In this document: in pieces, positions 26,101 through 48,387 of the stretch
How positions within the stretch are numbered: the first letter of the stretch is position 1
Layout: each line of letters starts with the position of its first letter
From: a virus
Direction: 5' to 3' (one strand)
DNA length: 64,000 nt
IMG/VR virus record: IMGVR_UViG_3300028840_003168
The notes under the pieces: model-generated
What the model saw: the letters and a program-made list of their open reading frames with translations, nothing else
Told to the model about the DNA's origin: nothing
Database searches by the model: none
Made by a program: the position numbers and the translations under genes

Positions 26101-28538
26101 TGGATGCGGGTCAGTTCGGGTGGGACTATCTTTTGGTAAATGAAGAGACTGGTGAGGACATCCTTATCCAGACAGATTGGGACTATCCTGGCGTGGCTTC
26201 TTATTTGGGGTGGCAGCATATTTGTCCTGATGGGGAAGCCCATGGTGAGACTGACGGGACGGTTGACTGTCCAGTGTGTGGAGAATCCTCAAGTGACATG
26301 ATTGGGGAAGCAGGAGAGTTCCTGGACGATCACATTGGGGATACCTTTGAAGACCCGGGATATTTCAGCGAGTCCAGAGGGGCCAAACGGAGATGGTTTC
26401 GGCAAGGTCAATCAATGGAGTTAGAGGATCTCCCTGCGTGGCAGACTACACTCCCTGACGAGATCAAGCAGCTATGGTTTGATGGAAATAGAGAAGAAGC
26501 TCTTGACCAGTTGTTCCAGACCGATGGCGGCTATGCTATCTATCAGCAGATACAGGAGGACTGGGGTGATGCGGAGTTTGCGGCTGCTGTGAGTGACCGT
26601 CATTCAAAGAATATGGAAGACCTCAAGCGTAGCCGTAGTTCTGCTCGACGGAGGCGTCTTCGGCAAGGCTCCCGAAGGGCCAATGCCACCTCGTCGATCA
26701 TAAGCAAAATCGACAACGACCCGCGCTCGTACATCGGCGCGAAGAAGCTCATCGACCAGACTGACGACAAGCTGAAATTAGCCGAGAAACTCGAAGCCTA
26801 CTTCACCAAGAGGGATGGAATCTCCACGGACGGCGTGAACTGGGGCAAGGTCGTGGATGCAGTCCATGCAAAGTTCGGTGAGGAAGCCGTGAAGGACAAT
26901 GATGGGAAAGAAGCCCGTCGCAGACGTGCTTTTCACATTCCGATAGAGGAAGTGGAGTTTGATCTTGAGATTATGGAAGACGATGTTCCTGTTCGCGGGA
27001 ATGCCATAGTCTCTGGTGATGATGATCTTGATAAGGAAGTTGAGGATGAGATTCTTGAGCGTCTTGAGACCGGCGATTTGTGGGCCTGGTGTACCGTTAA
27101 GGTCACTGCCGAGTGGGAAGCTGAGGATGGCCGTATTTTTAGCGGCGAGGACTATTTGGGGGGTTGCTCTTACAGGGATGAGGAAGACTTCACGGAGCCT
27201 GGGGGCTACTACGACGATATGAAGGAGCAGGCCTATGCAGAGCTTCTTGCAGAGGCTTCAGGTGCAGATCCGCAACCGATGGACCCTCGCCAGCAGAAGC
27301 TTCCCGGAGTTGATGCCCGTCGCCAAGCCAAGAGCATAAAAGAAAAGCTGGAAGAGTTCCAAGGTGTGGAGATAATCTTCGAGGATACTGGAGATGAGGA
27401 TACCGAATATATTGTCAAAGCACTTCAGGACGCAGGGGTTGATGCCAGTCTGGGTGACTACACTGAAGTGGATGGTGATAGTCTTGCCAATAGTGTGTAC
27501 GCTGAAAACATCATCAAAGATATAGAAGCAATCGTTTTCGGTGATGATGACGAGGAAGAGGAACCTGAGCGTGGAGAGCGTTGGGAAGATCTGAGTGACG
27601 ATGAGAAACGCTGGTACCACGAGGAACAACGTATCATAGACAGAAACAGAGGTCTGGAATCTCGCCGCCATGCCCAGGATGATATGATTCCTCAAGTATG
27701 GGAGGGTTCTTTTTACGCTTTGGATTTTCCTTCCGGGACCGAGTTTATTGATGCCAGCTGGGTGGATGAGTCTCTTTCCGAATTGAAAAATGCTAATTTT
27801 GCTAAGGGAGGTGTCCCTGAAGATGTGCGGGAGGTCCAGGGCTGGGGTGCTCAGTTGGTTTCTCCTGATGGCGTTGAGTACACAGATTTAGAAGTGTTTG
27901 ACACCGAGGATGAAGCTCGGGCGTCTTTGAAGAGGGGAAGAGGGGCTCGTCGCCAGGCCCAGACCTACGAATGGACCAACGACATCACCCGGCAGGCCTA
28001 TGAGGTTCTGAACCGCGACAAGGCCACTGTAGCCGCCGTGGAGGAACTCATGGCTGCTCATGCCGAGGACGCCGACAACACCATCCTAGTAGGCAACCTG
28101 GCACCTCTCCTTGGAAGTGAGATGGATTTCACCGAGGGCAGCTCTCACGAGATTGTCTGGGAAGAGGTCATTGAGAACTTCCAAGGCGGCACCCCCGAGA
28201 CCATGTACGATGAGAGCTACCAGATGGCCGCTTCCCGGCAGGCCATGCCCATGGAAGAGGACTTGGAGATGGACGGACCCCCGATGGAACTCGAAGAGTT
28301 CATCGATGAGGAACCGGCCCCCAAAGAGCCGCGCAAGTGGCCCGGTACCAAAGCCCCCATGGAGAACGGTGATAAAGCGAAGTTCAATGGGCATGACGGT
28401 CCCATCCGCGGGAAGATTGTGGAGATCGATGAGGCGGGAGATACCCTCATCCTGGAGAGCAAGGGGATGCAGTACCGGGTAGTGGTGGATGACGTGGAGG
28501 CTCTCCCGAGTACGATGAACAAGATGTGGAAAGAGTAG
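23157..28538 (+). CDS. Acidic modular polyprotein 2 (putative processed virion internal/ejection protein)
   Basis: About 12 linkers (SRRKVAG, EARRRRAG, EARRYEAG, EARRRAQ, EARRRKAQ, KRRWFRQGQ, SARRRRLRQGSRRANA, EARRRRAF, DARRQAK, ESRRHAQ, GARRQAQ, ASRQAM) between D/E-rich modules. Confidence 0.8.
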   Translation: MNINELRNKGHVKNSPIIKGLKRQQRLVQANLNRHAQQHSLTDMFSALKPGAREDDRQLHSLVKTAVSETNDLLNQFYFPVAPQLAFTKVKNVKYAKHDDSEVVSGCIMLNCKIASLSGVDVDADIPVHVERGELVLPSVLYQDGREHVIAQSTIDMITQRHTSYALPELRQQGEPPYDLEEAKMATESRNAIGYQPRKPIYLDEVTQNNDFRDKRPRIAAKGAPLGFKIVKEEMDKAEADGLDTFPRPIDYILATYVRPIMGEVYMSAWAPALTNGGYAINPYGENRGRPKTGSRRKVAGLGDKFIDNFGDVNWLEHGGKLLFEGESGPYVVVVDTWRLDDGQAEGESDPDMIWDVYRVDIEDGFKEDENGDVIGSNGYTEWWSKRDEMEGIASTVGQDVEEFIDDITSEDLKDRFFAYDTIAATWGWENLEGGPADQYDIDDLVRLFEGTELEETVKDVAEFRDLGLAQRDEEAEDEFSDYADEDDPDEGYDFKEARRRRAGEPFGTDVDFFEQWFHGAGFYSFGDMIEGYFDLNDDDLVTVAAATDGGSMSPPYALLIEQGGNPDVMMDAVVEMLEENLRHFRSDDIDKAYQEELKERGIRDFDDYADDDDMDEERWDIQSEIDQQYAGAEGLELFKIPPQDLLRIIKGHRNSEELLERIGVEGLDYESAEEDFSEREARRYEAGYGSETGDWGEPHKLHGVTYLELPDGRWEVPGNQGMPAEFFDSESDARDYIASYKDNGREARRRAQVEVDAEEAEMIIMNDEGMYNEAMFIVRQWNGTNIKDITADFMEYFGDLSETMDVGDWEDVAREIIEGMEDDEEHPPGMEPDSTWESKWELMLKEGVSGSVDIEVEYDYMVFEDGITQYYPDADLVESGDNYDNQMLKAIEAKYPDAYVSVQPGARDDITVTVNVDEQGDESDQLEDKRLTWMLAKEKEIQSDVRDMMEEGVESWDWLVEAGEDDNGREARRRKAQQVRLDAGQFGWDYLLVNEETGEDILIQTDWDYPGVASYLGWQHICPDGEAHGETDGTVDCPVCGESSSDMIGEAGEFLDDHIGDTFEDPGYFSESRGAKRRWFRQGQSMELEDLPAWQTTLPDEIKQLWFDGNREEALDQLFQTDGGYAIYQQIQEDWGDAEFAAAVSDRHSKNMEDLKRSRSSARRRRLRQGSRRANATSSIISKIDNDPRSYIGAKKLIDQTDDKLKLAEKLEAYFTKRDGISTDGVNWGKVVDAVHAKFGEEAVKDNDGKEARRRRAFHIPIEEVEFDLEIMEDDVPVRGNAIVSGDDDLDKEVEDEILERLETGDLWAWCTVKVTAEWEAEDGRIFSGEDYLGGCSYRDEEDFTEPGGYYDDMKEQAYAELLAEASGADPQPMDPRQQKLPGVDARRQAKSIKEKLEEFQGVEIIFEDTGDEDTEYIVKALQDAGVDASLGDYTEVDGDSLANSVYAENIIKDIEAIVFGDDDEEEEPERGERWEDLSDDEKRWYHEEQRIIDRNRGLESRRHAQDDMIPQVWEGSFYALDFPSGTEFIDASWVDESLSELKNANFAKGGVPEDVREVQGWGAQLVSPDGVEYTDLEVFDTEDEARASLKRGRGARRQAQTYEWTNDITRQAYEVLNRDKATVAAVEELMAAHAEDADNTILVGNLAPLLGSEMDFTEGSSHEIVWEEVIENFQGGTPETMYDESYQMAASRQAMPMEEDLEMDGPPMELEEFIDEEPAPKEPRKWPGTKAPMENGDKAKFNGHDGPIRGKIVEIDEAGDTLILESKGMQYRVVVDDVEALPSTMNKMWKE

Positions 28539-28541
28539 ACC

Positions 28542-30278
28542 ATGGACGAAGGATACACATTCACGCTCCAGGGTTACGACGTAGTTGTGAACGAGACCGA
28601 GAATTCCGAGGTTTTCCATGTTCAGATTCATGAAGGTGGGGCGCCTGTCTATGAGACCGATGTCCCCATCACTTTGGAGGACGAGGAAATTATCCTTGAT
28701 GAGGTAATCGATCACGCGGCCAAGGCTGCGATTGATATGTACGAGTCGGAGAAAGGTACCTTGGGACAAGGTGCTGAACCGCTAGAAATAGAGGCCAAAA
28801 TGAAAAGAGGACAAGCGATAGCTTCCCCAGGATGCTACTGGATGGAGTCGTGCAACTACACCGAATGGCTCATGCAGCTCAAAGGCACCCCCTACGAGCA
28901 GCAGGCCATCGTTCTGCTTGAGGAACTTATCAACCTCCAGGCCCCAGGCGCGACCAACACCGAGCTGGATGCTTTGTATAAGCAGAAAAGCCAGGTGGAG
29001 CATGAGCTGGATCGGCTGAACCTGGAGAGACTCAAGACTGCCGATCCTCCCAAACAGATCGTTGTCATTGAGGCCAACCGTACCCGGCGTGTGAGCTTCT
29101 CCGGGTTAGACTGGGTCGAAGGTTTCCTGGATGCGTTCAAAGACCACAGGCTGGAGCCTCAGGCCATTCTCAAGGTCAAGGAACTGATCGACCTGGAAGC
29201 GGCCATCGACGTGGCCAGCGCCACCGAGAGTGGTACCTGGGACCAGCAGGACGAGGTTCGCCGGCAGATGGACGCACTGCTCATCGAGAAGACCAAGTCC
29301 GAGGTGGACCAGAAGCTCCCCCAGAGCGGCATCGAGGTGGCCCCTGAGATGGCCAACGACATCGCTGACCTGATGGAAGGCGTCTCGATGGACGCTCCCC
29401 TGGAGCCGATGGTGGCTCGTCGCCGGCAGGTTGCTTACGAGGAGTACTACCCCGGTGAACACGGGGAAGGTGCGACAAGCAACTCGATTCTGGATGCCAT
29501 GGCCCGTGCCGTGTATGTGACCAGCTGGTCTAGTGAGTGGGAGTACCTGTGGGAAGACTATGAGGACGAGGTTATCGAAGAAGAAGCTGAAGAACTCGGA
29601 ATCGAAGTTCCCAATTTCATGGGTGCTGAACTCATGTCGATTGCACCGCCCACTGAGAAAGAGGCTCATGACCTTGCCAAGAAAGTGTATGACGAAATCG
29701 AGCGCGATAACAATGTGAACCTCGAAGACTTCATCCCGCCAGGAGAGGATGAGGACTTTGATCAGTTTGAGTTTGGTCACTATCTCATGATGGAGGTGCT
29801 GGGTTCTGGTGTTGCCTGGAGCGATGACCACGAAGACCACGGGTTGAAGCTCCCGTGGGAGGAGGGGGTCCAAGTTGAGGGCCTGACTCCTTTGGTGAAT
29901 GTCTTGTACGAGAAATATGGGGAGGGTCGCGAGGCTTCCAGAAAAGGCTGCCGCAGACCTGTTAGAAAGAGAGCCCAGGATGACAAGAAAGACCCTTTCG
30001 AGGTTGAGGAATTTGGTACGGAACTGGGGAAGGGTCACGGGGACCTGGACCCCGCGGAGGTTCCCGAAGCGACCCGAGTTCCTTTCGGCCCAGGCAACTA
30101 CATAAAGCTCAAGAACGAGGTCAAGGTTCCGTTGTGGGGAGGAGCTTCTCGTACCATACCCAAAGGTACGAAAGGGTTTGTGGACTCTTTGTATGACGGC
30201 CACGGCGACCGTTTCTATATCAGAACTGAAGAAGGCGCTCTGTTCAGCACCGACCGAGATAATTTGGCAAAAGCTTAG
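28542..30278 (+). CDS. Acidic modular polyprotein 3
   Basis: Linkers EAKMKRGQ, EANRTRRVSF, VARRRQVAY, EASRKGCRRPVRKRAQ; internally duplicated helical module. Confidence 0.75.
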   Translation: MDEGYTFTLQGYDVVVNETENSEVFHVQIHEGGAPVYETDVPITLEDEEIILDEVIDHAAKAAIDMYESEKGTLGQGAEPLEIEAKMKRGQAIASPGCYWMESCNYTEWLMQLKGTPYEQQAIVLLEELINLQAPGATNTELDALYKQKSQVEHELDRLNLERLKTADPPKQIVVIEANRTRRVSFSGLDWVEGFLDAFKDHRLEPQAILKVKELIDLEAAIDVASATESGTWDQQDEVRRQMDALLIEKTKSEVDQKLPQSGIEVAPEMANDIADLMEGVSMDAPLEPMVARRRQVAYEEYYPGEHGEGATSNSILDAMARAVYVTSWSSEWEYLWEDYEDEVIEEEAEELGIEVPNFMGAELMSIAPPTEKEAHDLAKKVYDEIERDNNVNLEDFIPPGEDEDFDQFEFGHYLMMEVLGSGVAWSDDHEDHGLKLPWEEGVQVEGLTPLVNVLYEKYGEGREASRKGCRRPVRKRAQDDKKDPFEVEEFGTELGKGHGDLDPAEVPEATRVPFGPGNYIKLKNEVKVPLWGGASRTIPKGTKGFVDSLYDGHGDRFYIRTEEGALFSTDRDNLAKA

Positions 30279-30300
30279 TTCCGCTTAGTTCCTCTCTCCC

Positions 30301-30341
30301 GAGGCCCCTGGTTCGCCTTTCGCCAGGGGCCTCAATTATTT
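30301..30341 (+). terminator. Intrinsic terminator after the polyprotein operon
   Basis: GAGGCCCCTGG/CCAGGGGCCTC 11-bp stem followed by AATTATTT. Confidence 0.75.
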
Positions 30342-30344
30342 GAT

Positions 30345-30373
30345 TGACGATAACCTCCTCATATTTTAAGCTC
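30345..30373 (+). promoter_or_regulatory. Sigma70-like promoter
   Basis: TTGACG-N17-TAAGCT, same layout as the 15569 promoter including TAACCTC. Confidence 0.5.
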
Positions 30374-30519
30374 TGATTCTCCATTCCGACAGAACTGGGT
30401 TGGCCTTCCTGGGCCGTTCAAACTTTTCCATTCGCTGGACAAAAACCGCACTCAGTTCTGTCGGTTCTTTTTTTGACATTGACCTTCGCATATTGATAGC
30501 CTATTTTAAGGAGGTCAAT

Positions 30520-30693
30520 ATGAGACGTATAGATGAATCAATAGCAAGGGGCGCAGGCTGTGTGTACATCATGAGTGTTCCACTGCTTAAAGAACTCGCA
30601 AAGAGGTATGGTACAATGTCAGCTGCTGAAGTATTTGAGATGGAGAGGAGAAGACGTGAACAAAAAGTCGCAGAGAAAAAAGCGCAAGCGTAA
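30520..30693 (+). CDS. Small hypothetical protein
   Basis: SD AAGGAGG, ATG 30520. Confidence 0.5.
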   Translation: MRRIDESIARGAGCVYIMSVPLLKELAKRYGTMSAAEVFEMERRRREQKVAEKKAQA

Positions 30694-30859
30694 AGAGAAG
30701 CGGAGAGCCCAGGATGCTACAGTTCCCATTAAGAAACCCAAGATACAGCCCCCACCTGTTCAGAAGGAACTTTCTGAAGATTTATAGTCCGCTTTAAAAG
30801 TTCCAACGGTATATTAGATATGATGGTTTCGTTAACCCAATACTAGGAGGTGTTCGAGT

Positions 30860-31549
30860 ATGCGAGTTCCGTTGATGTTTGTGTTAGGTTCCGTGCTGGT
30901 AATGATGCTGGCTGCGGTGAGTGTAAGAGGTATGACCGATAAGGGCCTTAACCGGCCCGTTTCTATCGGTCAGTGGACAGAGAAGACAAAAAGGATAGCC
31001 GCGCAATCAGTGATCGGTGAAGCAGGGTGGGGCAGTTCAGAACGTCCGCATGAAGTTATGAATGAATGGGTTTCAATCATGCAGGTGTATGTGGTCAGGT
31101 ATAGGGAGATACGGCAGACGGGCAGAAACTGGTCTTTGTCGAAAGTTATCAGAAAGTATTCAGCTGCGGTGAAGAAAAGGAGTACTCATGCAAGGCCGTG
31201 GATACTTGGAATAGACAGAGAGTGCAAACGTCCGCGAGGGTGGCCTCAGGAACTCAGGTGGAAGTCTGTACATAAGCCGATATGTGAAAGGGCCTTCCTT
31301 ACTTTGGATAGGTGGGCCAATGGTGATATCAAGACCTTGACTCCTGAGGCAAATCATTATGGCGGCTCAATGGATGCATGGTATGCGGAGAAAGTAATGA
31401 AGTGGAAACGTGTACCGACTCCTCCATATTACGGTAACAAGTTTTATGATTCTCGCCGCCTTACAGGCAAGCCCCTCGTCGCACCCAGAATGGCAGCTCC
31501 TGGGATTCCGATGTTCGGGAACCTGGAACTCGTCCGACCGAAGATTTAG
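30860..31549 (+). CDS. SleB-like cell wall hydrolase with N-terminal signal/anchor
   Basis: Hydrophobic N-terminus; AAQSVIGEAG, TPEANHYG and GNKFY resemble Hydrolase_2 motifs. Confidence 0.6.
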   Translation: MRVPLMFVLGSVLVMMLAAVSVRGMTDKGLNRPVSIGQWTEKTKRIAAQSVIGEAGWGSSERPHEVMNEWVSIMQVYVVRYREIRQTGRNWSLSKVIRKYSAAVKKRSTHARPWILGIDRECKRPRGWPQELRWKSVHKPICERAFLTLDRWANGDIKTLTPEANHYGGSMDAWYAEKVMKWKRVPTPPYYGNKFYDSRRLTGKPLVAPRMAAPGIPMFGNLELVRPKI

Positions 31550-31564
31550 TCCTTCTCAAAAAAA

Positions 31565-31607
31565 AGAACCTCGATATATTGACAGGTTCTGAAAAATGTG
31601 CAGAATA
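31565..31607 (+). promoter_or_regulatory. Sigma70-like promoter with palindrome AGAACCT-N12-AGGTTCT across the -35
   Basis: TTGACA at 31579-31584 inside a perfect 7-bp inverted repeat. Confidence 0.65.
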
Positions 31608-31654
31608 GTAGTTGTGAATCAATTTCCAAGCCTTTAACGGCAAAGGAGGTTACA

Positions 31655-34003
31655 TTGACAAAAACCCTAAACATAGCATGTGAGCTTCAACGGGCGGCGA
31701 ACGCCTTGTCCCAAGTCTGTGATGGGGCTGTTGAGGATGATGGCATGGGCTACAACGCCTGTGACACGTCATTCGGCAAGTACATCGCCGCGGTGGACCC
31801 TTCGGAGTGGGATGACGAGATCTGCTTCGTAGTTCATCGTATGCTCAAGAAGTACCAGGAGCAACTCGAATCCTACGACATCATTTATGACGAGCTGCCC
31901 AGGCCCGAGGTCAAGTGGGAGAAGGCCCCTAAGCGCGGTGACGTCTCCAAGCGCATGAAATCCAAGGCTGCTCGGGCCGACTGCCTCAAGGAACTTCAGC
32001 GGGAGCGTTCTGAGGGCGGTGGCGCACTGAATATCAAGAATACGTTCAAGAAGGTCATGATGTGCGGGTGGAGTGAAACGCATCAGGCTTTCGAGCTGGT
32101 GTCGCCTAAGGACTGGGACCTGGTGAACCGTATCAAGGAAGCTAAGTACAAGGACCGTAAGTGGACCGGCATGGCCTGGTTGATGTCAGGTGCCGGTCTT
32201 CTGCTGCTTCCGGCCATATTAAATGACTTCGATTTCGTCATCACGGACGAGGATCGTAAACGCCTGGACAAGATGATTAAGAAGGTCAAGGTTGAGCTGG
32301 CTGAAAAGGCTTCCAAGCCCCAGGTCTGGATCGAGGGCGATGTTGTCGTGACCAAGACTGATTACCATCCAGACCTTGTCCAGGTCATGCAGAACATCCA
32401 GGGTCGCAAATGGCGCGGTAGGGATGGTGGCCCTAAGGATGAGAACACTTTCCCGCTTAACGTAATCGCTGGCAGGCAGATTCTTGAGATGGTCGAACAG
32501 TTCAACCTCAGGGTTGCTGACGGCGTTAAGGGGCGGCTGGAGGATCTGGGTAAGGCGGCTGCCGAGCGTGTGAGTGCCAGCAACGCCCTGGATGCGGATC
32601 TGGACATCGAGGGCTTTGGTACCGACGAGCTGGTTCCTTATCCCTTCCAGAAGGGTGGCATCAAGTACGCCATGGGCGCGAAGAACACTTTTATCGCGGA
32701 TGAGATGGGTCTTGGCAAGACCGTCCAGGCCCTCGGGACCTTGCAGGCCACTAACACCTACCCCGCGCTCGTTATCGTTCCTAAAGGTGTCAACCTTCAG
32801 TGGGTGCGTGAAGCCGGTAGGTGGCTCCCCGGTCGGAGCTGTCAGCTTGTACGCGGCACCAAGCCTGTCGAGTACACCGCAGAAATCGTGGTCATCAATT
32901 ACGACATCCTTTTGAAGCACCTTCCAGGGCTCTTGGAACGCCCCTGGAAAGCCATTGTTCTCGACGAGAGCCACTACATCAAGAACCGCAAGGCGCAGCG
33001 CACAGCGGCTGCCATGGCGCTCTCAGCACTCGATAGCCTCGAAGTCAGACTGTGCCTCACGGGTACCCCGGTTCTGAACAGGCCCATTGAGCTGGTTCAG
33101 CAGCTTACCTTTCTGGGTACCTTGAACGACATGGGCGGTTTCTGGCATTTCGCCAAAAGGTTTTGTGACGCTCATGAAGCTGACGGGTTTTGGGATATGA
33201 ACGGCGCCTCGAACCTGGAGGAGCTGTCTAAGCGGCTCAGGGCCACCTGCTTTGTGAGGCGCGAGAAGGCCGATGTCATCAAGGAACTCCCGCCCCTGCA
33301 ACGGACTGTGGTTCCCGTCGAGCTGGACAACCTGGCAACGTATGAGGCGGCTCTCGCGGATGTTATCTCCTGGATGAGGTCCAAGAAGGCTGATGGCAGC
33401 GCCGATGCAGACAAGCGTGAGTACACCATCGAGGCCCTGGCGAAGATTGAGGGCCTGAAGCAACTGGTTGTCGAGCACAAGTTCAACAGTTGCGTTGAGT
33501 GGATTTCCAGCTTCCTGGACAGCGATGGTAAACTGGTGGTCTTCGCTCATCATCGCAACGTGCAGGACAAGCTGGCTGCGGCCCTGGCTGACTATAATCC
33601 CGCCAGGATCGTGGGCGCGATGAATGATGAGGCTCGTAAAGGCCAGATTGACAAGTTCCGTAATGACGACTCCTGCCGGGTGGCCATCGTGTCCTTGAAG
33701 GCCGGTGGTACGGGCATCGACGGTTTGCAGATCGCTTCCAGCGTGGCCTTCGTCGAGTTCGGTTGGCACCCCGGTGAGATGGACCAGGCCGAGGCCAGGG
33801 TACACCGTATCGGTTCTGATGAAGGTGTGTCTGCGGTCAACTCCTACTGGCTGGGCGCCGAGGATACCTTTGACGATGACATTATCGGGCTTATTGAGGA
33901 GAAGCGGGTAGTCACCGAGGCCATTAATGCGGGACGGGAAATCGAGGGGAATGTGGATATCGTGAGCTGGTTTGAGATGCTCACGGGAGTTGAGGAGAAG
34001 TAA
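31655..34003 (+). CDS. SNF2-family (HARP/SMARCAL1-like) helicase
   Basis: ADEMGLGKT, VINYDIL, LDESHYIKN, LTGTPVLN, QAEARVHRIG; TTG start after AAGGAGG. Confidence 0.92.
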   Translation: MTKTLNIACELQRAANALSQVCDGAVEDDGMGYNACDTSFGKYIAAVDPSEWDDEICFVVHRMLKKYQEQLESYDIIYDELPRPEVKWEKAPKRGDVSKRMKSKAARADCLKELQRERSEGGGALNIKNTFKKVMMCGWSETHQAFELVSPKDWDLVNRIKEAKYKDRKWTGMAWLMSGAGLLLLPAILNDFDFVITDEDRKRLDKMIKKVKVELAEKASKPQVWIEGDVVVTKTDYHPDLVQVMQNIQGRKWRGRDGGPKDENTFPLNVIAGRQILEMVEQFNLRVADGVKGRLEDLGKAAAERVSASNALDADLDIEGFGTDELVPYPFQKGGIKYAMGAKNTFIADEMGLGKTVQALGTLQATNTYPALVIVPKGVNLQWVREAGRWLPGRSCQLVRGTKPVEYTAEIVVINYDILLKHLPGLLERPWKAIVLDESHYIKNRKAQRTAAAMALSALDSLEVRLCLTGTPVLNRPIELVQQLTFLGTLNDMGGFWHFAKRFCDAHEADGFWDMNGASNLEELSKRLRATCFVRREKADVIKELPPLQRTVVPVELDNLATYEAALADVISWMRSKKADGSADADKREYTIEALAKIEGLKQLVVEHKFNSCVEWISSFLDSDGKLVVFAHHRNVQDKLAAALADYNPARIVGAMNDEARKGQIDKFRNDDSCRVAIVSLKAGGTGIDGLQIASSVAFVEFGWHPGEMDQAEARVHRIGSDEGVSAVNSYWLGAEDTFDDDIIGLIEEKRVVTEAINAGREIEGNVDIVSWFEMLTGVEEK

Positions 34004-34435
34004 TTGAACGCACTAACCAAAGAAGAGGCCCTGGAGATAACTGCTCGACACTGCTACGGCAAGTCCTTTTCCGAGTACACCGATCCTGAGAGGGACCAGG
34101 TGGTGATTTCGGTCATCACCAAGATTGCCAAGCGCAGGATGGCTGGCAAGCCCGAGCCTCAATTCCAGGTGGATGACGAAGTCCTGGTGAAGCGCGGCAG
34201 GGCTCGTGGTGAGCTTGCAACGGTTACTGCTCTGCGCTGGGACGATTGGGAGTACCGGTGGGAGGTCATCGTGTACACAGAAGGTACCGAACGCAGGATG
34301 GGTCGCAGGATGGGCGGTAAGGAATCTAGCTTTAAGCTGGTTAGCAGGCCTGAACCGGTTCAGGAGCAGGTATCTGAAGAGACTCGTAAACGCAGTGATG
34401 AGCTTATGAAAGCTCTGGAAAGTTTGGAGGGCTAG
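34004..34435 (+). CDS. Hypothetical protein, possible KOW/SH3-like fold
   Basis: FQVDDEVLVKRGRARGELATV. Confidence 0.6.
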   Translation: MNALTKEEALEITARHCYGKSFSEYTDPERDQVVISVITKIAKRRMAGKPEPQFQVDDEVLVKRGRARGELATVTALRWDDWEYRWEVIVYTEGTERRMGRRMGGKESSFKLVSRPEPVQEQVSEETRKRSDELMKALESLEG

Positions 34436-34436
34436 A

Positions 34437-35045
34437 ATGACAAACGAAAGACAATACACAAAAGCGGTAGATTTTGGCGACATACCTGTTGGCAGGTTGT
34501 TTATCTACCACGAAACTGTCTGGGTTAAGGTTAATCGGAAGGACGCAGCTTTCCTCAATGCCGAGGGTCCTGGCGTTGCTCAGTTTGATTTGCTCCAGAA
34601 AAGCTTTTCCGAGGATGAGTCGAATGAGGATGCTCCTATCCAGCTCCTGGATGGCGGCATGGTCGCAGAACTCATCATAGAGAAGCACCAGGCCTTGCTC
34701 AGGGAGGCCGCGGAGCAGACGGCGCAGGAGACCCTGGACAAGGAAAAGAACAAGATAATGGAAGTGTATAAGGGCTACGGTTGGGTGATCACGAGGGAGT
34801 TCATCGATTCCCCGGAAGCCGTGGGTAAGATGGGTCCGAGGGATGTGGAGTTCTCTCAGGAATACATCGAAAAATATGGTGCCGAGTTCCAGATGTATGA
34901 TGACGATGGGAACCTGTATTTCATCGGCAAGATTCTGGGCGACTACCAGGGCTTTGAGCCCCTGGACGACTTCGGTACTGCGTGGGCCGGTGCCACGTAT
35001 ATCAAGTACCTCAACCAGGAAACGAACACCTGGGAGATTATTTAG
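34437..35045 (+). CDS. Hypothetical protein
   Basis: SD GGAGG; C-terminal FQMYDDDGNLYFIG...EPLDDFG...G.T.I.Y pattern seen in phage hypothetical proteins. Confidence 0.7.
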   Translation: MTNERQYTKAVDFGDIPVGRLFIYHETVWVKVNRKDAAFLNAEGPGVAQFDLLQKSFSEDESNEDAPIQLLDGGMVAELIIEKHQALLREAAEQTAQETLDKEKNKIMEVYKGYGWVITREFIDSPEAVGKMGPRDVEFSQEYIEKYGAEFQMYDDDGNLYFIGKILGDYQGFEPLDDFGTAWAGATYIKYLNQETNTWEII

Positions 35046-35054
35046 GAGGGCAAG

Positions 35055-35309
35055 ATGACTGATTCCCTGGAGAAACCGCAAGTGACAAAAATAATCAAGG
35101 GGCATTCTATAACTCTTGAGAAGAGGGTTCGTTATGTAGCGAGTCTGGCGGCGATCACGCAAGATCGCAGGATATATCCAGTATCGATACGCAAGTACGA
35201 TGATTCTGAACTTGAAGTGGTGATTGCTGATCTTGAGTATGACCAAGCGAAAGAGCTGGTCAATGCTTTTAACAACGGGGCGAAAAGTCGTGATGGTAGG
35301 ATTTGGTAA
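35055..35309 (+). CDS. Hypothetical protein
   Basis: SD AGGAGG. Confidence 0.65.
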   Translation: MTDSLEKPQVTKIIKGHSITLEKRVRYVASLAAITQDRRIYPVSIRKYDDSELEVVIADLEYDQAKELVNAFNNGAKSRDGRIW

Positions 35310-35356
35310 CATGTGTCTTTCGTTTGAAAGGGCTTTGACGAAAATGGAGGTGTTAT

Positions 35357-35650
35357 ATGGAGGATACTAAATTACGAATAGGCGACGTTGTAAAAACTGT
35401 TTTTGGTGTGACTGGGGCTGTAGTGGGTTCTGTTAATGATTGGGTTATCGTAGAACACAATACTGGATTGGCTTATTATAGGGAAAGTGAAGTGGGACAT
35501 TCAACCTGTCCTATATGCAACACGATAGACCTTGACGGACTTGAAGCTTGCTCTGGTTGTTATATGCAAGTGGTTACAGAATTAGCCAAAGTCAAAAAAG
35601 AGAATAAGGCGCTTCGAGAGACTATTGCAAGAGGCGATCACACCATTTAA
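35357..35650 (+). CDS. Hypothetical Cys-containing protein (AT-richer segment)
   Basis: SD GGAGG; CPIC...CSGC. Confidence 0.6.
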   Translation: MEDTKLRIGDVVKTVFGVTGAVVGSVNDWVIVEHNTGLAYYRESEVGHSTCPICNTIDLDGLEACSGCYMQVVTELAKVKKENKALRETIARGDHTI

Positions 35651-35675
35651 GCACGGTTTGTAAGGAGGAAGACCG

Positions 35676-35888
35676 ATGAACATTTATGATTGGAAATGTC
35701 CAAAATGTGATCGAACTTGGCGTATAATTTCTTTTCCTCATCGATGTACTTGCGGTTATTTGAATGACAGCGAAGCGTTGCGACTGCATTTAAACGCACA
35801 ATTTGATGATGATAGCGGAAGCGAAGGCTATTCACATTATCACGAAACAGGAAGTGCCTGTTATTTGGGATGTAATTTCAGGCGATAA
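35676..35888 (+). CDS. Small zinc-ribbon hypothetical protein
   Basis: SD AAGGAGG; CPKC...CTC. Confidence 0.55.
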   Translation: MNIYDWKCPKCDRTWRIISFPHRCTCGYLNDSEALRLHLNAQFDDDSGSEGYSHYHETGSACYLGCNFRR

Positions 35889-35906
35889 TAGCAAGGAGGA
35901 AGTCCA

Positions 35907-36815
35907 ATGAAAGAACGATACGTAGCAAAGAATTTCAGACCGGCCACATTGGATTTGATTGAGATCTGTGAGGGCATCCTGAACGATTATGCCGCAGATG
36001 GGTATGATTTGACGCTTCGGCAGCTGTACTACCAGCTCGTGTCCAGGGACATCATTCCCAACAGTCAGAAAGAATACTCCAGGCTGGGTTCCATTGTGAA
36101 CGATGCTCGACTGGCCGGTTTGCTGGACTGGGAGCAGATTGTGGACCGTGGCAGAAAAACGGTGGAGAACTCTCACTGGACCGACCCGAGCGCCATATTA
36201 CGCTCCGCAGCCGCCTCATTCGCCATCGACAAGTGGGAGGCCCAACCCTACTACGTCGAGGTCATGTGCGAGAAGCAGGCCCTGGAAGGGGTCTTGGCGC
36301 CCGTCTGTGAGCGTCTGGATATTCCTTTCTCCTCGAACAAAGGGTACTCGTCCCAGAGCTTCATGTGGCGCAAGGGTAAGAACCTTTTGAGGAAGGTGCG
36401 GAGGGGCAAGGAAATTCTGCTGCTCTATCTCGGTGATCACGATCCTTCAGGATTGGATATGGACAGAGACATCAAGGACCGGCTTTCCATGTTCGTGGGT
36501 AATAGTGACCGTCTGCATGTGGAGAATCTGGACTTGAATCGGGTGGCTTTGACGATGGATCAGATCGAAGAGTTCAACCCGCCGCCGAACCCGGCGAAGA
36601 TTACGGACAGCCGTGCCAAGGAGTACATCAAGAAGCACGGTGACGAGAGCTGGGAGCTGGATGCCTTGGAGCCGCGGATATTGGCAGCGTTAGTCGAGGA
36701 CGCTGTTTTCGGGGTGCGGGACGAGGATCTCTGGATGGAAGCTCTGGCGAAGGAGCAGGCCATGACCGAGAGCCTGAAGGGCCTTGCGGACGAGTATAAG
36801 GATAAGGAATGGTAA
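35907..36815 (+). CDS. Topoisomerase VI-A/Spo11-like winged-helix + TOPRIM protein
   Basis: LTLRQLYYQLVS, EVMCEKQAL, LYLGDHDPSG (DxD), WELDAL. Confidence 0.8.
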   Translation: MKERYVAKNFRPATLDLIEICEGILNDYAADGYDLTLRQLYYQLVSRDIIPNSQKEYSRLGSIVNDARLAGLLDWEQIVDRGRKTVENSHWTDPSAILRSAAASFAIDKWEAQPYYVEVMCEKQALEGVLAPVCERLDIPFSSNKGYSSQSFMWRKGKNLLRKVRRGKEILLLYLGDHDPSGLDMDRDIKDRLSMFVGNSDRLHVENLDLNRVALTMDQIEEFNPPPNPAKITDSRAKEYIKKHGDESWELDALEPRILAALVEDAVFGVRDEDLWMEALAKEQAMTESLKGLADEYKDKEW

Positions 36816-36888
36816 TCACCTTCAACTTTAGAGAACCCACACGGCTTATTGTACACTGGTGCTTGGAGATTTTTGCCCAGAGGAGCCC

Positions 36889-37542
36889 ATGGAATTATTC
36901 TCTGAAATATCGAAGATTGCAAGGAAAAGAGCCATGCGTAAAAAGTCCATGAAGGATTACGATATCTTCCTGGAGGTGGCGAAGAGGTACGCCCAGACCA
37001 CAGATACCACAACGCTTGCCCCGGATGACATTCAAGTAGGTCAATCTGTGTTCGATCCAAACGATGAGGAGTTCATCGTTTTGGAGTCGGAAGATGCGGC
37101 CACCACCAAGGTGCTGATGCCTGCCGAGCAGCTCAACACAGGAGGCCTCCCGGAGAGCGTCCAGACCGTGGATGACGTTGCTCTTGAGTCAGACTATACT
37201 CTACAGCCCAGTGGCGCCCAGACGGGTGTGACGGCCTTCCACAAGGTACTGCCCGAGTTCCGGGAGAAAAAGCGGGCGGGAGTTTTGAAGGAGTTTCAGA
37301 AGAAAGCCCAGGCGACTCCCCAGGACATTATGTTGGAGAAGATCCAGGAGTTGCAGGAGGAGTTCCAGTATGCAGCCTACGCTCTTGTGGGTGCGTTGGC
37401 TGACTACTCAAACAACGGTGATCTCAATAAGCTGGATTTGGAACTTTCCAAGTTGAGAGTGGAAGGCATCCCGGATGAGGGCTTGGGGGTATCGGACCTG
37501 CGGGATCTGGTCGATGATGTCATGAGGGCTGAGGAAGTTTAA
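36889..37542 (+). CDS. Short acidic modular protein with basic linkers
   Basis: ARKRAMRKKS, VAKRYAQ, KKRAG, KKAQ; SD AGGAG. Confidence 0.7.
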   Translation: MELFSEISKIARKRAMRKKSMKDYDIFLEVAKRYAQTTDTTTLAPDDIQVGQSVFDPNDEEFIVLESEDAATTKVLMPAEQLNTGGLPESVQTVDDVALESDYTLQPSGAQTGVTAFHKVLPEFREKKRAGVLKEFQKKAQATPQDIMLEKIQELQEEFQYAAYALVGALADYSNNGDLNKLDLELSKLRVEGIPDEGLGVSDLRDLVDDVMRAEEV

Positions 37543-37596
37543 GGTTATGTTTAAGAAATCGGACATATTCCATTTTATCCTTTATGAGGTTAAACT

Positions 37597-37866
37597 ATGA
37601 GGAATCGCAGAAACCCACGCTGCTCAAGCCCCGGAGAGAATCGGGCCGGTTCTAAGTTTAAGGCTAAGTTTAATTACAGGAGATCCCAGGACGTGGACGG
37701 GTTCAGGTTCGGTGAAGATGGCTACATGGAAGTAATGGATGCCATCGTGGAGATGGTTGAGAACGGATACGGGGTCGTGGACATCATGCTCAACATCGGT
37801 GAGAGGTTTCCGCGGGAAATGGCAACAAAGGTGCTTGAGGAAGCACGAGCGCAGGGAATCTTATGA
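37597..37866 (+). CDS. Basic-leader acidic protein
   Basis: Basic N-terminus ending YRRSQ, then an acidic domain. Confidence 0.65.
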   Translation: MRNRRNPRCSSPGENRAGSKFKAKFNYRRSQDVDGFRFGEDGYMEVMDAIVEMVENGYGVVDIMLNIGERFPREMATKVLEEARAQGIL

Positions 37867-38141
37867 AACTCAAAGGCCTCACGGATAAGTCGGTAAAGAG
37901 GGTGGCCAAGGCTACCAAGACCCGAGAGGATATTTTGAGTATGGCTCAGTCGAATGCGGAAATGGCAATTGACCAGGCTTATGAACCAGATTTTGAGGAT
38001 CTCCAGGATGCGATAGACTCTTACTATGAGAATGCAGCAGACACGATGGCGGAATGGGGTTTTACCGTGTCAGACCGTGAATGGGATCTCATGTACGATG
38101 AATACTTTGCTACCGTAGAACGACTTCGGGGAGACCAATGA
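37863..38141 (+). CDS. Leader-class A cargo protein 1
   Basis: MKLKGLTDKSVKRVA leader plus acidic payload. Confidence 0.8.
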   Translation: MKLKGLTDKSVKRVAKATKTREDILSMAQSNAEMAIDQAYEPDFEDLQDAIDSYYENAADTMAEWGFTVSDREWDLMYDEYFATVERLRGDQ

Positions 38142-38551
38142 AACTCAAAGGCCTCACGGATAAGTCTATCAGCCGTATTGCGGACATGTTCGAGGTACCT
38201 TATTCCAAGAGCTACAAGAACAAGATGGACGAGCTGGAGGCATACCAGCCAGCTGATGAGGAGCTGGTGGACCTGGCAGAGGTACTTTACGGTTGCATCG
38301 ATGACGAGGATACCTGGGTACCTCAGGTGACGAATTCCAGGATACCGACCAGGAGTGATAACAATGTGGAGTCGGTGAGGTTCTACATGAATGTCGCCGC
38401 CGACGATATGGGCCGAGGTTTGGATTGGCTGGGTGCTTTGGCGAAACTGTGGGCAGTACATTCGGCCACCGGGTACACCCATGCCATAGATGAGCTGCAC
38501 GGAAGGTGCTGTGTTCAGGAGGAAGAGGATGAGACTCAAGGGATTATCTGA
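38138..38551 (+). CDS. Leader-class A cargo protein 2
   Basis: MKLKGLTDKSISRIA; first 29 nt identical to the previous gene. Confidence 0.8.
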   Translation: MKLKGLTDKSISRIADMFEVPYSKSYKNKMDELEAYQPADEELVDLAEVLYGCIDDEDTWVPQVTNSRIPTRSDNNVESVRFYMNVAADDMGRGLDWLGALAKLWAVHSATGYTHAIDELHGRCCVQEEEDETQGII

Positions 38552-38909
38552 TGAAGGTGTTAAGAGGGTGGCAGGTACCTTGCGAAAGACTGCGGACCTG
38601 GCTCCCAAGGACTTCATGACGGATATCGTGGTGAGTGATGACGGTTGGGGGTACTACCTGATTTACGAGAAGGCCGACGATTCCTTGTACGTTTTCAGAG
38701 ATGACAGGGACGCCGAGGAGGATAAGACTTTCAGTCTTGAGGTTGTCTGGGATGGGGTGGAACTCGAAGGTACCTTGGAGGACTGGGACGCTTTCAATGC
38801 GATTGATTGGGAAACCAAGAAAGGTCTCGCCGATGCCTTGGAGAAAGAGCTGAAGGATGTTGAGGAGGGGGAGCAGACCCGTAAGGAATATCTGAGAAGA
38901 GGTTGGTGA
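38529..38909 (+). CDS. Leader-class A cargo protein 3
   Basis: MRLKGLSDEGVKRVAGTLRKTA; SD AGGAGG. Confidence 0.8.
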   Translation: MRLKGLSDEGVKRVAGTLRKTADLAPKDFMTDIVVSDDGWGYYLIYEKADDSLYVFRDDRDAEEDKTFSLEVVWDGVELEGTLEDWDAFNAIDWETKKGLADALEKELKDVEEGEQTRKEYLRRGW

Positions 38910-39304
38910 TGAAACTTAAAGGATTATCTAACAAAGGTGTGAAGCGGGTAGCTTCTGTCATTAAAGGATATGGCCAGCGCGATCCTCAGAATGCTGTGGG
39001 CATAAGCGCATTTGAGGTCTTCGGAGACTCCGTTGATGCCTACCAAGAGTTTGCCTGGAACTATTTTGATAGAGGCCCGGAGGGCGGTATTGAGCTTCCG
39101 CAGACTTCTCTCGATAAAGAGATGATCATGTATGCCATGCAGGAGCATGTTGACGAGACCACCCAGCCGGGAGGTCCTGGGAGAGCTTTGGGGACAGGTG
39201 AGTACCTTGAGCTGGAGGACGCTGGGTACTACCTTGAAACTGTCATTGAGGAGCTTGAAATACTCCCCATGACCGACGAGGAGCTTTACGGGAGCCCGTA
39301 TTGA
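38909..39304 (+). CDS. Leader-class A cargo protein 4
   Basis: MKLKGLSNKGVKRVASVIKGYGQ. Confidence 0.8.
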   Translation: MKLKGLSNKGVKRVASVIKGYGQRDPQNAVGISAFEVFGDSVDAYQEFAWNYFDRGPEGGIELPQTSLDKEMIMYAMQEHVDETTQPGGPGRALGTGEYLELEDAGYYLETVIEELEILPMTDEELYGSPY

Positions 39305-39537
39305 TGAGCCAGAAGGATAACATCATCGCTACCACTGAAGGGATACTGGACGCCTTGAGGGCACTCACAGGGCGTCTCTATGATGCTTTGGAGAGGTACC
39401 GGGAGGATGATGATGTGGAATCTTTGGGTGAGGAGATAGAGGACCAGGTGGACTATATGATACCGGATGTGGCCACGGTCATGAAAGACCTTGCTTTGGA
39501 CATCAGTCTTGAGGCTGTTGAAACTTTGGAGGATTAG
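39304..39537 (+). CDS. Acidic small protein lacking the leader peptide
   Basis: In the array, coupled by a TGATG overlap. Confidence 0.65.
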   Translation: MSQKDNIIATTEGILDALRALTGRLYDALERYREDDDVESLGEEIEDQVDYMIPDVATVMKDLALDISLEAVETLED

Positions 39538-39541
39538 GGAA

Positions 39542-39856
39542 ATGCGTTTAAAAGGATTATCAGAAAAGGGTGTCCAGCAGGTTGCCAGGACGATTAAGGG
39601 ACAGGATACCTATGAGTGGCAGTACGGTACTGAGATAGACCCCCTGGCCACCGCAGTACACAACGATTTGAATGATGCCGAGGCTTATGCCAAGGAGCTT
39701 GTCTCGGATGTTGACGCTATTCTGTATTCAGCTACCTCACCCCATCAGGAAGTGAAGGACTGGGTACATGAAGTTCGTTGGGCCGCTGAAAAAGCACAGG
39801 CTCTCGTTAACCTTTTGGAGATGGTTGCTGATACATTAGAGGAGGGTAGTCAATGA
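39542..39856 (+). CDS. Leader-class A cargo protein 5
   Basis: MRLKGLSEKGVQQVARTIKGQ. Confidence 0.8.
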   Translation: MRLKGLSEKGVQQVARTIKGQDTYEWQYGTEIDPLATAVHNDLNDAEAYAKELVSDVDAILYSATSPHQEVKDWVHEVRWAAEKAQALVNLLEMVADTLEEGSQ

Positions 39857-40329
39857 GACTCAAAGGAATCACAGGACAGGGCATTCAACGGGTTGCCAGG
39901 ACGATTAAGGCTCAGGGTGAAGGGCTTACCATGTTTGACCTGGACACCTTCGCACAGGCCTATGTAGAAGCCATGCTGTGGTCCTCCTCCACCATGGAGG
40001 ATGATGCAGAGATGTTCGGTGAGGAGTTTGCCGAGAACCTGGATGACTTGGTAGGGTTCATTGACATGTCTCCTGAGGCGGTAGCCCAGGTGAAAGAGGA
40101 CTGTGATCAGTTCCAGGAGGAGAATGCGGAACTTCTCGATCAGGTGTCGGAGGAGTTCGGGGTTGGCGACGACCAACACGGCCATGATTTCTGGCTTACT
40201 AGAGCAGGTCATGGTGCTGGGTTCTGGGACCGCGGTTACGGTGACTTGGGGGAGAGGCTGTCGGACGCCGCCCGGAAGTTTGGGCATATCGATCCTTATA
40301 TCGGTGATGACAAGAAAGTCTATTTTTGA
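39853..40329 (+). CDS. Leader-class A cargo protein 6 (GHDFWLTR.GHG.GFWDR family payload)
   Basis: MRLKGITGQGIQRVARTIKAQ; payload motif GHDFWLTRAGHGAGFWDRG. Confidence 0.8.
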   Translation: MRLKGITGQGIQRVARTIKAQGEGLTMFDLDTFAQAYVEAMLWSSSTMEDDAEMFGEEFAENLDDLVGFIDMSPEAVAQVKEDCDQFQEENAELLDQVSEEFGVGDDQHGHDFWLTRAGHGAGFWDRGYGDLGERLSDAARKFGHIDPYIGDDKKVYF

Positions 40330-42688: not shown

Positions 42689-42756
42689 GGGGTACCTCCT
42701 TCCTATGGTAGGTATGACGGGGTGCAGGTACTTTTTCTGACAAATATGTGAATGGC

Positions 42757-42777
42757 TTCAAACTTTTTTGGTATCTT
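42757..42777 (+). promoter_or_regulatory. Phage promoter motif copy 2
   Basis: TTCAAACTTTTTTGGTATCTT, then SD GAGGAGG. Confidence 0.8.
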
Positions 42778-42795
42778 CCCTATGAGGAGGTACCG

Positions 42796-43509
42796 ATGAG
42801 CGAATCAAAACCAGGCAAACTGAAACCTTACAATAAGTGTACGAAGAGTGAACTGATCGATCATCTGCGGATACGGGATTTGCAGTTGGGGGAGGAGAAG
42901 GCCAACGTCAAGTCCTACACGATAGCCTTGGACAAAGCCCAGGAGGAGCTGGAGGATGCCATAGTCGCCAGGGAGAACCTGCTGATAGAGAAGACCCAGA
43001 TGGGTGTTGACCAGGCTGCGGAACTGCACAAGGTCAGTACAGACTGTGGGGAGGCCGCGGGGTTTGTCAATAATGTGCTGGACAGGTTGATTGGTCTGGT
43101 GGCCGAGGAGAAACTGAACAGAGGGGTGTTCGAGGAAGTTTCCATGAAGCTCCACATAGCCATCTCTCTGATGCACAGGGACTCTACTTCAACGTATGTC
43201 AAACGGCTTATAGATACCATGGAGAAGGCCAAAGCCGCGGCTGAAGGTACTCCAATGAAAAAGAGCATATCTGTGGGAGAGCCCAAGCCCATCATCCTGC
43301 ACCTGGAGAAGGTGGGTAAGAAGAAGATTGATGTTATCAGGCTCATTCGGAATTACATGGGACTAGGGTTGCAGGAAGCAAAGGTTCTGGCAGAGGATTG
43401 TACCAACTTCGGGAAGTCCATTGAGGTGTACTCACACGTTGACCTTCGGGAGATAGTCAAGGTAGCCACGGAGTTTCAGGAAGTGGGAGCGAAGGTTTAC
43501 TACAAGTAG
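42796..43509 (+). CDS. Coiled-coil protein fused to a ribosomal protein bL12 C-terminal-like domain
   Basis: LEKVGKKKIDVIRLIRNYMGLGLQEAKVLAE...FQEVGAKV vs bL12 [31 protein letters not shown]...LEEAGAEV. Confidence 0.75.
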   Translation: MSESKPGKLKPYNKCTKSELIDHLRIRDLQLGEEKANVKSYTIALDKAQEELEDAIVARENLLIEKTQMGVDQAAELHKVSTDCGEAAGFVNNVLDRLIGLVAEEKLNRGVFEEVSMKLHIAISLMHRDSTSTYVKRLIDTMEKAKAAAEGTPMKKSISVGEPKPIILHLEKVGKKKIDVIRLIRNYMGLGLQEAKVLAEDCTNFGKSIEVYSHVDLREIVKVATEFQEVGAKVYYK

Positions 43510-46058: not shown

Positions 46059-46255
46059 CTGAACCTCTCAGGGTGCCTAAGGAGTTTGAGGAGTACTGCA
46101 TGTCAGCCCGAGAGGTATCCGAGTTCCTTGGCGTACATAGGAACACTGTCTGCAATTGGGTAAGGGACGGCAAGATACCTTACATCCGCATTGGGAGAAG
46201 GAAGTTGATGTTTCGCAAAGTCGATGCAGAAGGGATGCGTGTACAACATGACTGA
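46055..46255 (+). CDS. Excisionase-like HTH DNA-binding protein
   Basis: MSAREVSEFLGVHRNTVCNWVRDGKIPYIRIG. Confidence 0.8.
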   Translation: MTEPLRVPKEFEEYCMSAREVSEFLGVHRNTVCNWVRDGKIPYIRIGRRKLMFRKVDAEGMRVQHD

Positions 46256-46571
46256 ACTTGACAAGGTATTCAAGAAAGCCCACGGGATGATCACCCGCAT
46301 CCACCAGGGTATCTTCGACATAGAGAAGCTCAGGTTGCCCGTGGTGGCCATTCTCATGGCTCCCGAGGACTACAAGCTATTCCTGACTTATCTGACTAAT
46401 GAGTACCCTCTGGGCCACGTCATGCTCTCCAGCCACGATACCTTTCGGGACATTCCGATTCTGGTGGTACCCGGCGCCAAGCTCAAGGTACTGACCTCGG
46501 CCTACGAGGAGTACATGAAGCTCCCCGATGTGGAGCCCTTGCACATGATTAGGAGGATGCCTGATGTCTGA
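46248..46571 (+). CDS. Hypothetical protein
   Basis: Overlap-coupled ORF. Confidence 0.55.
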   Translation: MTELDKVFKKAHGMITRIHQGIFDIEKLRLPVVAILMAPEDYKLFLTYLTNEYPLGHVMLSSHDTFRDIPILVVPGAKLKVLTSAYEEYMKLPDVEPLHMIRRMPDV

Positions 46572-47216: not shown

Positions 47217-47225
47217 CTCATCCAC

Positions 47226-47246
47226 TTCAAACTTTTTTGGTATATT
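47226..47246 (+). promoter_or_regulatory. Phage promoter motif copy 3
   Basis: TTCAAACTTTTTTGGTATATT; ATG 47255 only 8 nt downstream (leaderless). Confidence 0.8.
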
Positions 47247-47254
47247 CCTTATAG

Positions 47255-48376: not shown

Positions 48377-48387
48377 AGGAGAACAGA

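Follow-up and report, generated by a model that had tools for sequence, protein, structure and literature searches.

We analysed a stretch of 64,000 nucleotides (nt) of viral DNA (IMG/VR record IMGVR_UViG_3300028840_003168; hereafter the window), in which two kinds of genes encode small acidic domains that we call payloads. In the first kind, a single payload follows a short N-terminal leader. In the second kind, payloads are chained together by arginine-rich linkers in three giant proteins, called here polyproteins A, B and C. All genes in the window are on the plus strand. We found that related phages carry the same payload families in both formats, and that a short sequence motif recurs at leader ends, at linkers and on proteins of head assembly. 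With about even confidence, we propose that the phage keeps a pool of small acidic payload domains in two interchangeable formats, which would be cut by the head protease, loaded into the capsid and injected.

The window is part of an uncultured tailed phage of ~158 kb, represented in ENA by metagenome contig k141_2638559 (from ERZ27256798) and also present in Logan assemblies. The sequencing runs carrying the phage are from sediment and seawater, and no RNA runs are listed among them. The window has no match to GenBank phages at the DNA level. At the protein level, polyprotein B, an open reading frame (ORF) of 462 amino acids (aa) at 5706-7094 and the module of polyprotein C discussed below have no match among these phages. 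Using exact protein look-ups, we walked 59 kb upstream of the window, for a total of 123 kb of stitched sequence. The upstream stretch encodes neck and sheath proteins, a head-maturation protease (L011:1061-1966; phrog_18299, E 4e-30), a scaffold-like protein of 646 aa and a major head protein (phrog_2522, E 7e-62), the last of which begins with a hyperbasic extension of ~100 residues. The nearest public record is Virus Rctr197k, with a capsid identity of 57%, and phage G, RSL1, PaBG and Lu11 have more distantly related capsids.

Interchange of formats between related phages

Polyprotein C (28542-30278, 578 aa, isoelectric point (pI) 4.4) is an acidic protein with multiple modules, one of which is a folded helical domain at 29469-29918 (residues 310-459). 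Contig L015, from a sister sample, is syntenic with the window over 8.3-30.3 kb and encodes an ortholog of polyprotein C with 401 aa. This ortholog aligns to residues 5-306 and 488-565 of the window protein, and thus lacks the module, the Arg-rich linker downstream of it and the Arg run upstream of it. The L015 copy of the module is found in a separate 185-aa gene (P0128, 59% identical), behind an N-terminus that resembles leader A, the leader of six genes in the window. P0128 is in the same locus, between a 556-aa gene of L015 and a gene resembling that of polyprotein A. The indel between the polyprotein C orthologs shows directly how modules move between gene formats.

The second payload family, phrog_1915, occurs behind a leader in the window. 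In the related protein P0151, an N-terminal domain that is encoded separately in the window (16801-17412) is followed by two phrog_1915 domains and one module, and each of these domains begins 8-11 residues after a GRRQA joint. In another relative, P0125, an internal copy of leader A is positioned directly before a module. Given the arrangements in L015, P0151 and P0125, each of the two payload families is found in the single and in the chained format, and the leader is usable as an internal joint.

The original prediction, which was made from the window's sequence, held that the same payloads occur in polyproteins and in leader arrays. This statement is borne out by the relatives L015 and P0151, but the two domains that had been compared do not belong to one family (see below). 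The sequences of these relatives support a single, shared payload pool better than that pair does.

Leader-tagged genes

Leader A is common to six genes between 37863 and 40329, and leader B is common to three genes between 40698 and 41649 (starts 40698, 41004 and 41374). The last of the leader-A genes (39853-40329) consists of a leader of 20 aa (39853-39912), ending in TIKA before Q, and a payload domain of the phrog_1915 family (39913-40329). The phrog_1915 match has an E-value of 1e-30 and extends over residues 26-157 of the protein and positions 5-139 of the 141 in the profile. The five further leader-A genes (37863-39856; starts 37863, 38138, 38529, 38909 and 39542) encode unrelated acidic payloads. 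Based on BLASTP, the similarity among leaders is significant and ends after the first 20-25 residues, and the payloads behind the leaders are unrelated. Leaders A and B are also found on at least seven genes 44-51 kb upstream, which are scattered among genes for head, neck and sheath proteins.

The leader of the 39853-40329 protein was modelled as a helix (residues 8-22), with a lower predicted local distance difference test (pLDDT) score. The payload of this protein has 1409 homologs. Only its nearest homologs (P0005, P0006, P0008 and P0007) retain the leader, and the others begin at the domain. P0007 has two tandem copies of leader A before one phrog_1915 domain, each ending in QA↓Q (the arrow marks the presumed cut). 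We searched ~100,000 residues of retrieved proteins with a pattern specific to leader A. The pattern occurs at N-termini only, barring one evident false positive and two internal copies. These internal copies are the one in P0125 and one in the L015 homolog of polyprotein B, and both are then followed by KA↓Q.

Polyproteins and their joints

The three polyproteins are encoded by adjacent giant ORFs and are strongly acidic sequences interrupted by short Arg-rich clusters; the median pI over the whole proteome is 5.7, which is not strongly acidic. The ORFs are located between recombination genes and an SNF2 helicase, and the head genes are elsewhere. We defined a strict site as at least three K or R residues among the six residues before a small residue, which is then followed by Q. 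There are 12 strict sites across the three polyproteins, along with several further joints of the RRRRA, RRQA or RRHA type. Polyprotein A (17396-22108; 1570 aa from a TTG start, pI 4.7) has six strict sites, and polyprotein B (23157-28538; 1793 aa, pI 4.3) has four, in addition to RRRRA, RRQA and RRHA joints. The true start of polyprotein A is probably the ATG at 17435 rather than the TTG at 17396.

Homologs of polyprotein A are P0124 and a 1278-aa protein of L015. The N-terminal domain of polyprotein B is conserved in P0129 and L015, and weakly in Rctr197k, where it adjoins the terminase gene. An ESM Atlas feature search with this domain gave no lead. A Pfam scan of the three chains found no family at the curated cut-off and no hallmark enzymatic domain of polyvalent proteins. 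The sole Pfam match at E 0.1 is Zn_ribbon_8 in polyprotein A (E 0.052, 14 bits versus a cut-off of 34.4). Polyprotein C matches no Pfam or PHROG family (PHROG cut-off E 0.01).

The joints that flank the module of polyprotein C appear in its structural model as unstructured, low-pLDDT segments on either side of a confident fold. The upstream basic joint, ARRRQ (29415-29429), corresponds to no Arg run in the L015 ortholog, and the downstream Arg-rich linker, which ends in RKRA↓Q (29937-29978), is within the stretch that is absent from L015. The linkers are also similar as DNA. The 12-mer GAAGCCCGTCGC, which encodes E-A-R-R at the start of a linker, has five exact copies in polyproteins A and B (positions 18329, 19718, 24645, 25395 and 26910), where 0 are expected by chance, so linker DNA is kept even at silent positions. 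This repetition suggests recombination or a recent spread of joints, and would fit an exchange of cassettes.

The separate gene at 16801-17412 is a homolog of the N-terminal domain that heads polyproteins in relatives, namely the L015 556-aa protein, P0127, P0139 and P0151 (BLASTP 45% identity over 200 aa, E 1e-51). It overlaps the TTG start of polyprotein A, and its counterpart in relatives is fused to cargo modules.

A short site at leader ends and linkers

The leader ends listed in the original prediction (TIKG↓Q, TIKA↓Q, KGYG↓Q, VVA↓Q, RKTA↓D, IRA↓D and RRRG↓D) are all present, as are the linker ends (RRA↓Q, RKG↓Q and RRS↓Q). These two sets were said to match. They do share a short core consisting of K or R, then A or G, and usually Q, but the linkers are far more Arg-rich. 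The minimal common site is a small residue (A, G or S), usually followed by Q, with K or R within the preceding two to four residues. A position matrix derived from the 12 strict linker sites ranks leaders above other N-termini (Mann-Whitney p 1e-4).

The location of the site relative to the payload is also regular. In at least nine close homologs of the polyprotein C module, K/R-x-A↓Q occurs 6-22 residues before the first helix. This position is kept behind a leader, a leader-like element and another module alike. It is plausible that leaders and linkers would be cut with one protease specificity.

Relationship between the two payload families

The original prediction aligned the module of polyprotein C, by eye, with the stand-alone gene at 39853-40329. 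The elements that it named are where it placed them: the motifs quoted for the module are found at nt 29490-29825 of polyprotein C, and a leader and payload are found in 39853-40329. The alignment is upheld as a resemblance in motifs and a colinear HHalign result, but falls below statistical proof, and the two domains are not one family. We think that they are probably distant relatives, yet members of separate families. It is unlikely that they are unrelated helical domains whose resemblance is convergent or due to chance, an alternative that concerns this pair only.

The module has a conserved G-H ... G-x-G-V-x-W-x-D motif, and was predicted by AlphaFold2 with a mean pLDDT of 85 overall and 86-98 across the module part. 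An exhaustive HMMER search found at least 363 clusters of its family, some with stand-alone proteins (120-170 aa) and others with several modules per protein. No Pfam model exists for this family, and its match to phrog_15314 is weak.

Direct sequence searches are on the side of unrelated domains. BLASTP of polyprotein C against the 39853-40329 protein gave short, non-significant matches (best E 0.08), none of which is over the claimed alignment. With a hidden Markov model (HMM) profile of 120 relatives of the 39853-40329 protein, the module was not matched even at E 10, and a scan of all ORFs in the window found no match in a polyprotein. Moreover, P0151 has both domains adjacent to one another as distinct units. 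The profile of the module matches 120 phrog_1915 members weakly (best E 4e-5; 0.44 for the 39853-40329 protein itself). These weak matches are reciprocal, and in a bridging sequence, P0171, both profiles match the same stretch, which argues for a relationship.

The HHalign comparison of the two modules that had been suggested as a check is divided in the same way. Its P-values are 0.002 and 0.0009 over 103-110 colinear columns, and it puts three motif blocks in register over the whole domain, but its probability is just 13-23%. The AlphaFold2 models of the module (pLDDT 85) and of the 39853-40329 protein (pLDDT 92) have an identical order of helices. A Foldseek search of BFVD with the module model found no significant match, with all E-values above 1, which again fits unrelated domains. 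However, four of the eight BFVD entries that match the 39853-40329 model at a probability of at least 0.99 are in the top 50 of the module model, including rank 1. An ESM Atlas shape search found only unnamed viral clusters, with template modelling (TM) scores of 0.40-0.53.

The site on head-assembly proteins

The motif also occurs on proteins that are involved in head assembly. In the head protease, it is found as F-R-K-T-A↓Q at the N-terminus and as L-K-V-A↓G ahead of the C-terminal helix. F-K-R-G↓Q is present in the scaffold-like protein, together with a stretch RRRPARRRPAR that polyprotein A also contains. In Rctr197k, the protease and scaffold are fused, and the small residue is kept at the aligned sites while the residue after the presumed cut (P1′) is changed. 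Among 93 homologs of the protease, F3, K5 and A/S7 are nearly invariant, and the C-terminal site is moderately conserved, with a small residue in 58 of the 93. These sequences fit a model in which the protease would process itself and the scaffold at motif sites. The C-terminal site of the protease and the sites in the scaffold are likelier cuts than the N-terminal motif. The evidence pointing to the head protease as the processing enzyme is circumstantial. The protease has no Pfam match at E 0.05.

We noticed other features of these head genes. The N-terminal extension of the major head protein (L011:4722-6023, ~54.5 kb upstream of the window) is lineage-specific and has an extremely high content of Arg, Lys and Pro. 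The PHROG match of this protein begins at residue 103, and in Rctr197k the corresponding extension is rich in Gln. The gene that follows (L011:6134-6955) has an N-terminal RRXRR (IscB-type) domain (E 4e-8), and no nuclease domain was detected in it. A Lys-rich microprotein of 38 aa (L011:511-627) is encoded two genes upstream of the protease, with a 105-aa ORF between them. It starts with M-G-F-K-K-T-G, and this N-terminus repeats the F-K/R-K-T-small motif of the protease.

The window itself encodes a stand-alone zincin metallopeptidase of 174 aa with an HExxH motif (4509-5033; PF18894, Pfam E 2e-8, 34.7 bits versus a cut-off of 23.7). It is located among replication genes, and may be a processing enzyme or an effector.

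Proposed mechanism and alternatives

In the mechanism that we propose, a payload would be carried either as a single domain behind a basic, helical leader of ~20 residues, or in a chain of domains that are linked in giant proteins through short Arg-rich linkers. Entry of the cargo into the procapsid would depend on the leader or, for chains, on their conserved end domains. The head-maturation protease would cut after the small residue of the shared site, and the cargo would be cut to single domains inside the procapsid. At infection, the released domains would exit together with the DNA and have an early action, plausibly one that counters host defences. We infer cleavage, the identity of the protease, capsid packaging, injection and the function of the payloads from the genes and their arrangement.

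A number of observations weigh against this proposal. With the linker matrix, just 3 of 17 leaders score above the 95th percentile of the null set, because linkers are Arg-rich, while leader ends are shorter and contain little Lys. No site could be recognised in two leaders (38138 and the upstream gene at −44467), and the loose motif is enriched just 1.6-fold proteome-wide. In the 93 protease homologs, P1′ is variable, such that Q or D is not conserved, and the invariant N-terminal motif of the protease may be structural and not a cut site. No site of this kind is clearly conserved in the basic N-terminal extension of the capsid protein. When the head protease was modelled as a complex with residues 1-45 of the 39853-40329 protein, the prediction gave no verdict either way. 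The polyprotein genes and the window's leader array are amid genes for replication and nucleotide metabolism. A candidate late promoter, present in three copies in the structural region, is absent from the window, so these genes lack it; scans for sigma-70 promoters and terminators performed no better than chance. Finally, the PF18894 peptidase encoded in the window is a rival processing enzyme.

The distribution of the motif belongs with these points. Outside the clade, members of both domain families are parts of larger fused proteins that lack the motif. Across the module family, the motif is upstream of 27% of embedded copies versus 18% of background windows (p 0.08), and it is not enriched at phrog_1915 domains inside 86 longer proteins elsewhere. 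Given this lack of upstream enrichment outside the clade, the motif is clade-specific, and not a property of the domain families. Such confinement would follow from a link between the motif and a single protease lineage.

One alternative, which we regard as distinctly unlikely, is that nothing is cut. The leader would then be a docking or nucleic-acid-binding helix that was inherited by gene duplication and cassette recombination, the linkers would be flexible basic spacers, the giant proteins would act intact and the K/R-small-Q pattern would be compositional. The weak match between leader ends and linkers past three residues, the modest enrichment of the loose motif and its absence from some leaders are compatible with this idea. 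The exact repeats of linker DNA also suggest recent recombination over selection on a site, and some polyvalent proteins, e.g., the N4 virion RNA polymerase, are packaged uncut (PMC5512222). However, this alternative does not sit well with a distance from site to module that is fixed at 6-22 residues in both formats and in many relatives. It also does not sit well with the internal leader-like elements that end in KA↓Q as well, the recurrence of the motif on the protease and scaffold, or the fact that joints are gained and lost along with a module.

The other alternative, processing in the cytoplasm, is very unlikely. Here, the metallopeptidase at 4509-5033 or a host protease would cut the chains and leader proteins within the infected cell, giving many small early proteins and no packaging. 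Polyvalent proteins are predicted to be processed by metallopeptidases embedded in them (PMC5512222), and the HExxH enzyme of the window is 12 kb upstream in the same early-looking gene block. In addition, the window's polyprotein and leader genes are outside the structural cluster and lack the candidate late promoter. However, the same leaders are on genes within head, neck and tail operons, the head protease and scaffold themselves have conserved copies of the motif, and a shared N-terminal leader would be left without a reason.

A broader version of our proposal concerns the clade of uncultured marine and sediment phages as a whole. It is possible, although the balance is somewhat against it, that one portable element combining an address with a cut site, which is a leader at the N-terminus and a joint internally, loads dozens of shuffled acidic effector domains in these phages and releases them as single proteins.

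Comparison with known systems

In phage T4, the proteins IPI, IPII, IPIII and Alt carry a capsid targeting sequence and are processed by the prohead protease gp21. The procapsid takes up this cargo, which is then trimmed and later injected along with the DNA; one of these proteins, IPI, counteracts a restriction enzyme of the host. As in T4, the phage studied here has a short N-terminal leader that is common to unrelated proteins and that ends at a protease site, although the site is putative here. However, the T4 leader has ~10 residues and is cut after Glu in L/I-x-E, whereas the leaders here are basic, have ~20 residues and would be cut after A or G, usually before Q. They do not end in the T4 site, but in K/R-x-A/G before Q or D. 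The protease here is of the phrog_18299 type without a Pfam match, and the capsid is of the lineage of phage G and RSL1. Moreover, T4 has single cargo proteins, whereas this phage has chains of more than 20 modules, and packaging was demonstrated in T4 and is proposed for this phage.

The herpesvirus assemblin and HK97-type proteases cut scaffold and protease precursors, and assemblin cuts after Ala, at A↓S sites. Any likeness to these proteases would be limited, as the P1′ residue and the basic context at P2-P5 differ.

The giant phages related to phiKZ (phiKZ, 201phi2-1 and SPN3US) have many head-internal proteins, including families of paralogs, with N-terminal propeptides (PMC10052503). 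The prohead protease removes these propeptides by cutting at a short consensus sequence, and some of the proteins are cut at several sites (PMC10052503). By contrast with the system described here, that motif ends in Glu (A-x-E type), and the propeptides are long and are degraded. Additionally, these phages have neither short leaders that are interchangeable nor unrelated payload domains strung together in regular chains.

Polyvalent proteins, which are encoded by phages and conjugative elements, are giant and have many domains. They are predicted to be packaged, delivered with the DNA and proteolytically processed, and their domains also occur solo (Iyer et al. 2017, PMC5512222). The chains here are similar in that a phage polypeptide has many domains that are also found solo. 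However, they lack the typical enzymatic domains (zincin peptidase, ADP-ribosyltransferase (ART), methylase-helicase, ParB-like and others) and an embedded peptidase, and they consist of small acidic modules with a stereotyped linker that are coupled to the leader format. Regarding adjacency to head genes, which is a feature of polyvalent proteins, the chains are near recombination genes and the SNF2 helicase, while the weak Rctr197k homolog of the N-terminal domain of polyprotein B adjoins the terminase.

In our comparison, the logic of the proposed system resembles that of T4 and the phiKZ-like phages, and its architecture resembles that of polyvalent proteins. It differs from the known systems in its leader, the presumed P1 and P1′ residues, the lineage of the protease, the acidic, enzyme-free modules and the regular linkers. 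A literature search found no paper describing such chains.

Additional genes

Right after the leader arrays is a gene (42748-43509) for a protein of 237-253 aa with a recorded Pfam match to Ribosomal_L12, which would make it a phage version of the L7/L12 C-terminal domain. Upstream of the arrays, a gene at 35907-36815 encodes a 302-aa protein whose homologs in unrelated, smaller phage contigs (L002 and L003) are 44-46% identical. This gene looks mobile or widely shared, and outside the cargo system.

Virus Rctr197k (KX853510.1, L014) has a classical polyvalent protein of 2175 aa with zincin motifs, located between the terminase and portal genes. It also has the fused protease-scaffold mentioned above, which has 998 aa. 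The two genes are at 46139-52666 and 55254-58250, respectively. Both proteins are annotated only as misc_features.

Implications

Should cleavage at the joints take place in the head, the phage would inject ~40-50 distinct small acidic proteins, far more cargo than in T4. The protease lineage and site are unrelated to the Glu-specific systems of T4 and phiKZ, so, if the proposal is true, loading by a leader plus a site would have arisen or been kept in several capsid lineages. The leader would also be a short tag that could be tested for loading foreign proteins into a capsid other than that of T4. Finally, two widespread and uncharacterised domain families, phrog_1915 (more than 1400 clusters) and the module family (more than 360), would become candidates for injected, early-acting and possibly anti-defence effectors.

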